Assembly: GCF_003991155.1 (NCBI RefSeq)
Contig: NZ_CP031293.1
Length of the DNA: 64,000 bases
From: Escherichia coli
Lineage (GTDB): Bacteria > Pseudomonadota > Gammaproteobacteria > Enterobacterales > Enterobacteriaceae
Strand: one strand, 5' to 3'
A model generated the notes under the pieces. The model saw only the letters and a list, made by a program, of their open reading frames with translations. It ran no database searches and was not told where the DNA came from. The translations under genes were made by a program, and so were the position numbers. The first letter of the stretch is position 1. Every line of letters starts with the position of its first letter. Below are positions 39,504 through 40,391 of the stretch, in pieces.

Positions 39504-40391
39504 GTGGTACGGCGTTTAACTTCTCCGCGGCTCGAATTTGAAGCTGCGGCAATTTATGAATATCCCGAACATTTACGTTCATTCCTTAATGACTTACCCA
39601 CCCGACCAGGGGTGTATCTGTTTCATGGCGAAAGTGACACCATGCCGCTCTATATCGGCAAAAGCATTAACATCCGCAGCCGCGTCCTTTCTCATTTACG
39701 TACCCCGGATGAAGCCGCCATGCTACGGCAATCCCGGCGAATTAGCTGGATCTGCACCGCAGGCGAAATCGGCGCTCTGCTCCTTGAAGCGCGATTAATC
39801 AAAGAGCAGCAGCCACTGTTTAATAAACGGTTGCGCCGCAATCGCCAGCTCTGCGCCCTGCAATTAAATGAAAAGCGCGTCGATATGGTGTATGCCAAAG
39901 AGGTGGATTTTTCACGAGCCCCCAACCTGTTTGGCCTGTTTGCCAATAGGCGCGCAGCTTTGCAAGCATTGCAGACCATCGCTGATGAACAAAAACTTTG
40001 TTATGGCCTGTTGGGACTGGAACCGTTAAGCCGCGGTCGTGCTTGTTTTCGTTCAGCGCTTAAACGTTGCGCCGGAGCATGCTGCGGTAAAGAGAGCCAT
40101 GAGGAACATGCGCTACGCTTGCGCCAGTCTCTGGAGCGTTTGCGGGTGGTGTGTTGGCCTTGGCAAGGGGCGGTGGCGCTGAAAGAACAGCACCCGGAAA
40201 TGACTCAATATCATATTATTCAAAACTGGCTGTGGCTGGGGGCGGTTAATTCGCTGAAAGAAGCGACAACGTTAATTCGGGCACCCGCCGGGTTTGATCA
40301 CGACGGTTATAAAATTCTTTGTAAGCCGCTGCTTTCCGGGAACTATGAAATTACTGAACTTGATCCGGTGAATAACCAGCAAGCCAGTTGA
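39504..40391 (+). CDS. cho: UvrC-homologue excinuclease Cho
   Basis: 295-aa ORF with GIY-YIG motif ([20 protein letters not shown]). Confidence 0.9.

Follow-up and report, generated by a model that had tools for sequence, protein, structure and literature searches.

Convergent cho and ves genes of Escherichia coli share 41 nt at their 3' ends, probably as a neutral by-product of tight tail-to-tail packing

At the junction of cho and ves, two Escherichia coli genes that converge from opposite strands, the final codons of each gene are written in DNA that also encodes the end of the other, and the question raised by such a locus is whether the shared nucleotides are put to use, as doubly coding sequence, as a terminator or as a way for one transcript to quiet the other, or whether they are simply what results when two genes are packed tail to tail. 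One of the partners, cho, is repressed by LexA. The initial annotation of the DNA analyzed here (a stretch of 64,000 nucleotides, which we call the window) had claimed that the two coding sequences overlap by 41 nt at their 3' ends and that nudG and ynjH are arranged in the same manner; the ORF listing, the sequence and RefSeq all bear out the former, and the latter also holds (Table 1). As reference annotation we used RefSeq NZ_CP029747.1 from strain 2016C-3878, which is identical to the window across 39400-41100 and whose gene ends for cho and ves match the ORF listing exactly. The locus is found in 5423 of 5426 complete E. coli genomes, with both genes annotated in 5423 genomes, and Ves matches the Pfam family HutD (E 9e-44) over residues 8-175 of its 191. 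Because neither stop codon is in doubt and each gene is conserved across Enterobacteriaceae, the overlap is real: two genuine genes on opposite strands share their stop-proximal nucleotides, and an annotation artefact is ruled out. Within the overlap, position 1 of the cho codons faces position 1 of the ves codons, cho position 2 faces ves position 3, and cho position 3 faces ves position 2; the nudG/ynjH overlap falls into the identical phase class.

Table 1. Features at and around the cho/ves junction, with the second tail-to-tail overlap of the window (coordinates in the window)
Feature	Position	Strand	Remarks
cho (ydjQ) CDS, excinuclease Cho	39504..40391	+	GTG start, TGA stop 40389-40391; 888 nt, 295 aa
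ves (ydjR) CDS, HutD-family protein	40351..40926	-	TAA stop 40351-40353; 576 nt, 191 aa
cho/ves tail-to-tail CDS overlap	40351..40391	both	41 nt
Ves C-terminal extension S186-Q191 (SPDQVQ) and stop	40351..40371	-	lies over the conserved Cho E-I-x-E-L end
Cho variable tail D287-S295 and stop	40362..40391	+	length and sequence vary between genera and within Escherichia
nudG/ynjH tail-to-tail overlap	57852..57886	nudG +, ynjH -	35 nt; nudG 57479..57886, ynjH 57852..58124
RNase III-cleaved 21-bp dsRNA in cho	40164..40184	both strands sequenced	167-187 nt past ves stop; among the rows listed in PMC7373196 Table S3
RNase III-cleaved dsRNA in ves	40493..40513		about 100-120 nt past cho stop; 2 mismatches to K-12; among the rows listed in PMC7373196 Table S3
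RNase III-cleaved 22-bp dsRNA in ves	40780..40801		about 390-410 nt past cho stop; among the rows listed in PMC7373196 Table S3
Rho-dependent premature termination region inside cho	39528..39773	+	K-12 Term-seq, PMC7815308; placed by offset from the cho start
spy/ves intrinsic terminator, bidirectional-looking	41041..41121	both	A-tract, hairpin 41054-41106, T-tract; dG -33 kcal/mol, z -4.1

Whether an overlap of this size calls for any special explanation depends on how often such overlaps arise. Published counts put the number of convergent CDS overlaps in E. coli at 58 or 75 (PMC2174442, PMC4161906), which is about one per 62-80 kb, and finding two inside one 64-kb window is nothing out of the ordinary. 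Nine gene pairs converge within the window, spaced by 76, -35, 8, -41, 46, 3, 40, 52 and 3 nt, and in five of the nine the spacer is 8 nt or less, leaving essentially no space for an intergenic terminator. The earlier contention that neither cho nor ves has room for a terminator and that each is obliged to run into the other stands as geometry, since the full-length mRNAs are complementary over at least 41 nt, but it does not make this pair special among its neighbors. We also asked how far an open reading frame that enters the 3' end of a gene on the antisense strand continues before it meets its first stop, using the 61 annotated genes of the region: the median run, 53 nt for all cases together, is 41 nt for the phase shared by cho/ves and nudG/ynjH, and a run of at least 41 nt occurs in 59% of cases. 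Judged by the E. coli overlap counts, the spacings in the window and these antisense runs, the 41-nt cho/ves overlap is no greater than chance yields. The window's further tight convergent pairs are ynjF/ynjE, with a spacer of 8 nt, and ydjO/tcyP and selO/hemP, with 3 nt each; ynjE-ynjF and ydiE(hemP)-selO are also among the published convergent excludons (PMC12288877).

A scan of species-representative genomes gave 80 cho loci from Enterobacteriaceae, in which we anchored the reading frames on the motifs DGYKILC (Cho) and LLFSEI (Ves) and then read each to its first stop. In 62 loci, including the window and the E. coli references L001 and L002, ves is convergent with cho and adjacent to it, and in one more it lies 1.8 kb away. 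The overlaps seen among the 62 are 4, 7, 10, 15, 23, 32, 41 and 45 nt long and occur in all three phases: Escherichia and Citrobacter have 41 nt, Enterobacter and Lelliottia 23 nt, Leclercia and Silvania 32 nt, Kosakonia and Phytobacter 4 or 7 nt, and the remaining genera 10, 15 or 45 nt, while five species have gaps in place of an overlap (3, 28, 46, 46 and 48 nt). Tight packing is well conserved, with an overlap or a gap of at most 3 nt in 58 of the 62 species. The spacers of 28-48 nt contain a palindromic hairpin, a putative dedicated terminator-like element that is missing from the overlapping species; in four loci (L050, L054 of Pseudescherichia vulneris, L055 and L065) the palindrome is perfect, for example AACCGGCA…TGCCGGTT or CGCCTGCCGT…ACGGCAGGCG. 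No ves stands beside cho in 19 loci, among them those of Salmonella, Klebsiella, Raoultella and Pluralibacter, all of which have kept cho. In S. enterica arizonae (L007, 3880-3960) ves is cleanly deleted and cho is intact, its stop directly abutting the spy terminator hairpin; this Salmonella hairpin after the cho stop comes without a T-tract on the + strand. The cho tail of L007, which ends …CRQS before the stop, retains GCCAGT, a remnant of the ves codons W181-L182, and because of this remnant the comparison suggests that the overlap is the ancestral state in the clade of Salmonella, Escherichia and Citrobacter. An overlap this labile, combined with repeated loss of ves, speaks against a selected regulatory module. 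Upstream of ves, the E. coli genome 2022S01-140-18 (L002, 2093-2790) carries an IS1A between ves and spy, which parts ves from its upstream region and does not affect the overlap.

The lability probably goes back to where the two proteins stop being conserved. Cho is conserved through E-I-x-E-L286, beyond which follow 0-9 residues of variable sequence, and Ves is conserved through W-L-x-G-H/Y185; in most Enterobacteriaceae these conserved cores lie 0-18 nt apart and do not overlap, and only unconstrained tails read into the partner's conserved end. The SPDQVQ extension of Ves is confined to Escherichia and Citrobacter and is missing in all other genera, where the protein ends in …GH, in most of them as …WLPGH at 185 aa. 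At the place of the ves stop in other genera, E. coli has TCA (Ser), and we infer that a TGA-to-TCA change added the six residues, the next in-frame ves stop sitting antisense to cho codons I283/T284.

The initial annotation also held that transcription of each gene runs into its partner, and with this the published K-12 data agree in antisense reads, in double-stranded RNAs and in an excludon listing. In the wild-type total RNA-seq of Huang et al. 2020 (PMC7373196, Table S1c), sense and antisense RNA amount to 7.9 and 19.2 RPM for cho (ydjQ), 156.7 and 4.7 RPM for ves (ydjR), 9.0 and 45.4 RPM for nudG, 80.0 and 2.7 RPM for ynjH, 120 and 2.1 RPM for nadE, and 37 and 2.8 RPM for spy. In each overlapping pair the weaker partner, cho in one and nudG in the other, thus has an excess of antisense over sense RNA, and read-through from the stronger gene opposite would produce just this. 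Among the rows listed in Table S3 of the same study, p19-captured dsRNAs of 21 or 22 bp flank the junction on both sides (Table 1), and none of these rows falls within the 41-nt overlap itself. The 2025 ExcludonFinder study (PMC12288877, Table 1) includes both cho-ves and nudG-ynjH among 165 convergent excludons of MG1655, each present in at least 50% of 58 MG1655 transcriptomes, and by these published data the cho and ves transcripts do overlap as those of a convergent excludon do. Read-through of this sort is widespread, with a 3' overlap in 276 of 370 E. coli convergent operons (75%) and a mean length of 286 nt (Conway et al. 2014, PMC4161252). For ves, an internal promoter could be the source of the antisense RNA in place of read-through from cho. 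Genomic SELEX places a minor-sigma RNA polymerase peak inside the ves ORF (K-12 U00096.2 1822736, about window 40700), in a table belonging to a section on flagella-related constitutive promoters (PMC5493296), and this peak could be an internal or antisense promoter that adds to the antisense RNA over ves; our own promoter scan of 39200-41900 found no sigma-70-like sites.

Where these transcripts end is less sharply defined. A consensus terminator scan returned 4 sites in the region, where 3.5 would be expected, and the junction has none of them. The candidates from a hairpin-plus-U scan over 750 and 900 nt downstream of the stops are all weak, their 9-nt tails holding 4-6 T; on the - strand the one at 40134-40097 (dG -12.3) ranks first. 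An Rfam search of the whole window has no match at the junction, and none of the 3' ends that Term-seq records, whatever the condition, falls in the overlap or close to it (PMC7815308), a result that is uninformative at such low expression. The point made in the initial annotation, that neither gene has room for a terminator of its own, is weakened in that terminators may sit inside the partner's CDS or depend on Rho, and a Rho-dependent region has been mapped within cho. The Term-seq and bicyclomycin data of PMC7815308 put a Rho-dependent 3' end at U00096.3 1823539, which is 24 nt from the cho start, and a Rho termination region at 1823784, about 270 nt from it. Much + strand transcription would consequently stop before reaching the junction in unstressed cells, and this may contribute to the low level of cho mRNA. 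In composition the two read-through RNAs offer plausible Rho substrates, stretches rich in C and poor in G where the C/G ratio reaches 2.45 on the + strand and 1.8 on the - strand (40190-40071). The first canonical + strand terminator downstream of cho is the spy/ves hairpin, which on the - strand coincides with a very strong spy 3' end at K-12 1825060 (about window 41049), 123 nt upstream of ves (PMC7815308). This terminator has a bidirectional look even though spy and ves run in the same direction, and the sole annotated + strand gene upstream of it is cho, roughly 700 nt away.

Several readings would give the overlap a function of its own. One is that the overlapping residues of both proteins are needed and that constraint acts on the 41 nt in both frames at once. 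The fair conservation of the Ves tail as SPD-x-VQ within Escherichia and Citrobacter is what one might expect in that case, but this conservation mirrors the conserved cho codons beneath it, the tail is absent from the other genera, and it lies outside the HutD model, which ends at residue 175; the Cho tail differs even within Escherichia (VNNQQAS, ANDQRAS, ENGLQAS and VNSLPAS). A column-by-column alignment of 17 Escherichia and Citrobacter sequences, which contains no site that is silent in both frames, divides the overlap into two parts. Across 40369-40391 the variable columns are ves third positions, with Ves S186, G184 and I179 unchanged and Cho residues shifting radically, for example among V/A/E/G or N/D/G/S/A/V, and such substitutions keep Ves conserved and leave the Cho tail free to vary; across 40351-40365 the cho residues (I, L) are conserved and ves residue 189 varies among Q/P/T/S. 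By this pattern each tail is a passive read-out of its partner's constraints, which is the signature of a neutral overlap. Tails that vary or vanish across genera, and that change at the partner's synonymous sites, show no sign of dual-coding selection, and we give that reading next to no credence. Another reading places a collision-type or overlapping bidirectional terminator, of the sort in Ju et al. 2019, inside the coding overlap, where it would give both genes sharp 3' ends. Such elements reportedly often lie between genes that converge in E. coli, local folding does place a hairpin shortly beyond the cho stop (about 40411-40437), and the spacer-bearing species have their palindromic hairpin in that place. 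However, the overlap and its surroundings contain no element with A-tract, hairpin and U-tract, Citrobacter does not conserve the hairpin sequence at 40412-40421, and antisense reads and dsRNAs reach 170-410 nt beyond the stops (PMC7373196). With no terminator-like hairpin at the junction and antisense RNA that runs on for hundreds of nucleotides, an overlapping bidirectional terminator there is very improbable; the closest element of that type is the spy/ves hairpin (41054-41106).

It is also conceivable, if unlikely, that the arrangement is a functional convergent excludon, a form of the antisense interference for which the initial annotation saw scope. Read-through from ves, as transcription or as RNA, would be selected to damp cho, giving this SOS nuclease a second lock, and cho would damp ves in return. 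RNA polymerase collision, or cleavage of the duplex by RNase III, would then make the two genes mutually exclusive, a mechanism that we regard as doubtful here. The pair does stand in the published list, and among excludon pairs taken together synteny is higher and co-expression in single cells rarer (PMC12288877); antisense exceeds sense RNA over cho, dsRNA products of RNase III lie in both genes (PMC7373196), and the spacer-less layout is retained in most genera that have ves. Set against these points are an overlap whose length and phase are not conserved, the genera from Salmonella to Pluralibacter that do without an adjacent ves, and a level of cho sense RNA that is not raised in rnc mutants (7.9 RPM in the wild type, 6.4 in rnc-14 and 5.7 in rnc-38; PMC7373196), which indicates that RNase III is not visibly holding cho down. 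LexA repression and premature Rho termination are other candidate causes of the low cho sense RNA. A more particular proposal is that constitutive read-through from ves is a LexA-independent silencer that acts on cho after initiation and maintains the spacer-less junction, with nudG/ynjH behaving alike; we think this quite improbable. It would work through RNA polymerase collision or antisense RNA, and nudG/ynjH does resemble cho/ves in phase and in the imbalance of antisense over sense RNA, yet we hold out little prospect for this version of events either. Conserved tight packing could nevertheless reflect selection for coupled transcription instead of neutrality or deletion bias, and the greater synteny and lower single-cell co-expression of the excludon class (PMC12288877) also speak against a neutral origin.

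The explanation that we consider probable, with good confidence, is that cho and ves form an ordinary convergent overlap, produced by tight tail-to-tail packing and drifting stops, in which neither dual coding nor regulation has been selected for. Conserved cores that lie so close together would let each frame continue until it meets a chance stop in the antisense of the partner's conserved end, and the six-residue extension of Ves and the free tail of about nine residues on Cho would together make up the 41 nt. With no spacer between the genes, each mRNA has to run on into the other gene. In K-12, ves as the stronger gene would read through into cho and make antisense RNA the majority species there, and some sense/antisense duplex would form and be cut by RNase III. 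Termination would be Rho-dependent or would take place at weak sites embedded in the partner's CDS, and on the + strand the bidirectional spy/ves hairpin would be the last point at which transcripts are stopped. Whatever the regulatory effect on either gene, it is probably small.

The cho/ves overlap is already known, being present in every E. coli annotation and belonging to a well-described class, and the overlapping transcription of cho-ves and of nudG-ynjH is already catalogued in the literature. Convergent overlapping CDS pairs (Lillo & Krakauer 2007, PMC2174442; Huvet & Stumpf 2014, PMC4161906) are likewise opposite-strand genes that share their 3' ends through loss or movement of a stop codon, and the placement of terminators inside the partner's CDS, or their dependence on Rho, is a point discussed in the published work that applies to cho/ves as well; the modal overlap in that class is 4 nt and that of cho/ves is longer, and we find no other difference. 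Convergent excludons (PMC12288877) have in common with cho-ves overlapping 3' transcript ends and perhaps the cutting of the dsRNA by RNase III, but their functional hallmark is mutual exclusion, and cho is not derepressed in rnc mutants (PMC7373196). The pair mscL-arfA (PMC10070815) is also arranged tail to tail, with complementary 3' ends, RNase III involvement and a place in the excludon list; there, a regulatory effect on transcript stability and on phenotype was shown experimentally, which sets it apart from cho-ves. In the convergent operons with 3' overlap (Conway et al. 2014, PMC4161252), read-through into the neighbor makes antisense RNA as it does at cho/ves, but there it passes a leaky intergenic terminator, while at cho/ves the CDSs themselves overlap and the run-in is obligatory. 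The pair has little importance beyond bookkeeping, and its comparative picture makes a tidy textbook case of how an overlap originates neutrally, with free tails slaved to the partner's conserved end, an overlap whose length and phase shift between genera, a hairpin in the spacer of some species and, in Salmonella, the clean deletion of ves. Should the excludon reading be true, an SOS repair nuclease would gain one more, modest layer of control.

Elsewhere in the window, an IS1 of 767-768 bp lies at 34151-34917, inserted in chbR on the - strand and dividing it into parts at 33818-34120 and 34913-35437. It carries InsA at 34205-34480 and an InsB frame at 34399-34902, is bounded by an insertion-site duplication of about 9 bp judging from the BLAST coordinates, and is missing from the otherwise near-identical strain 2016C-3878. 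Rfam matches on the - strand mark an STnc540 sRNA (69 bits) at 10719-10877 and a Phe leader (74 bits) at 14573-14697, and the reference annotates the T3SS effector gene espL1 in the region of these matches (NZ_CP029747.1 1865334-1867232).
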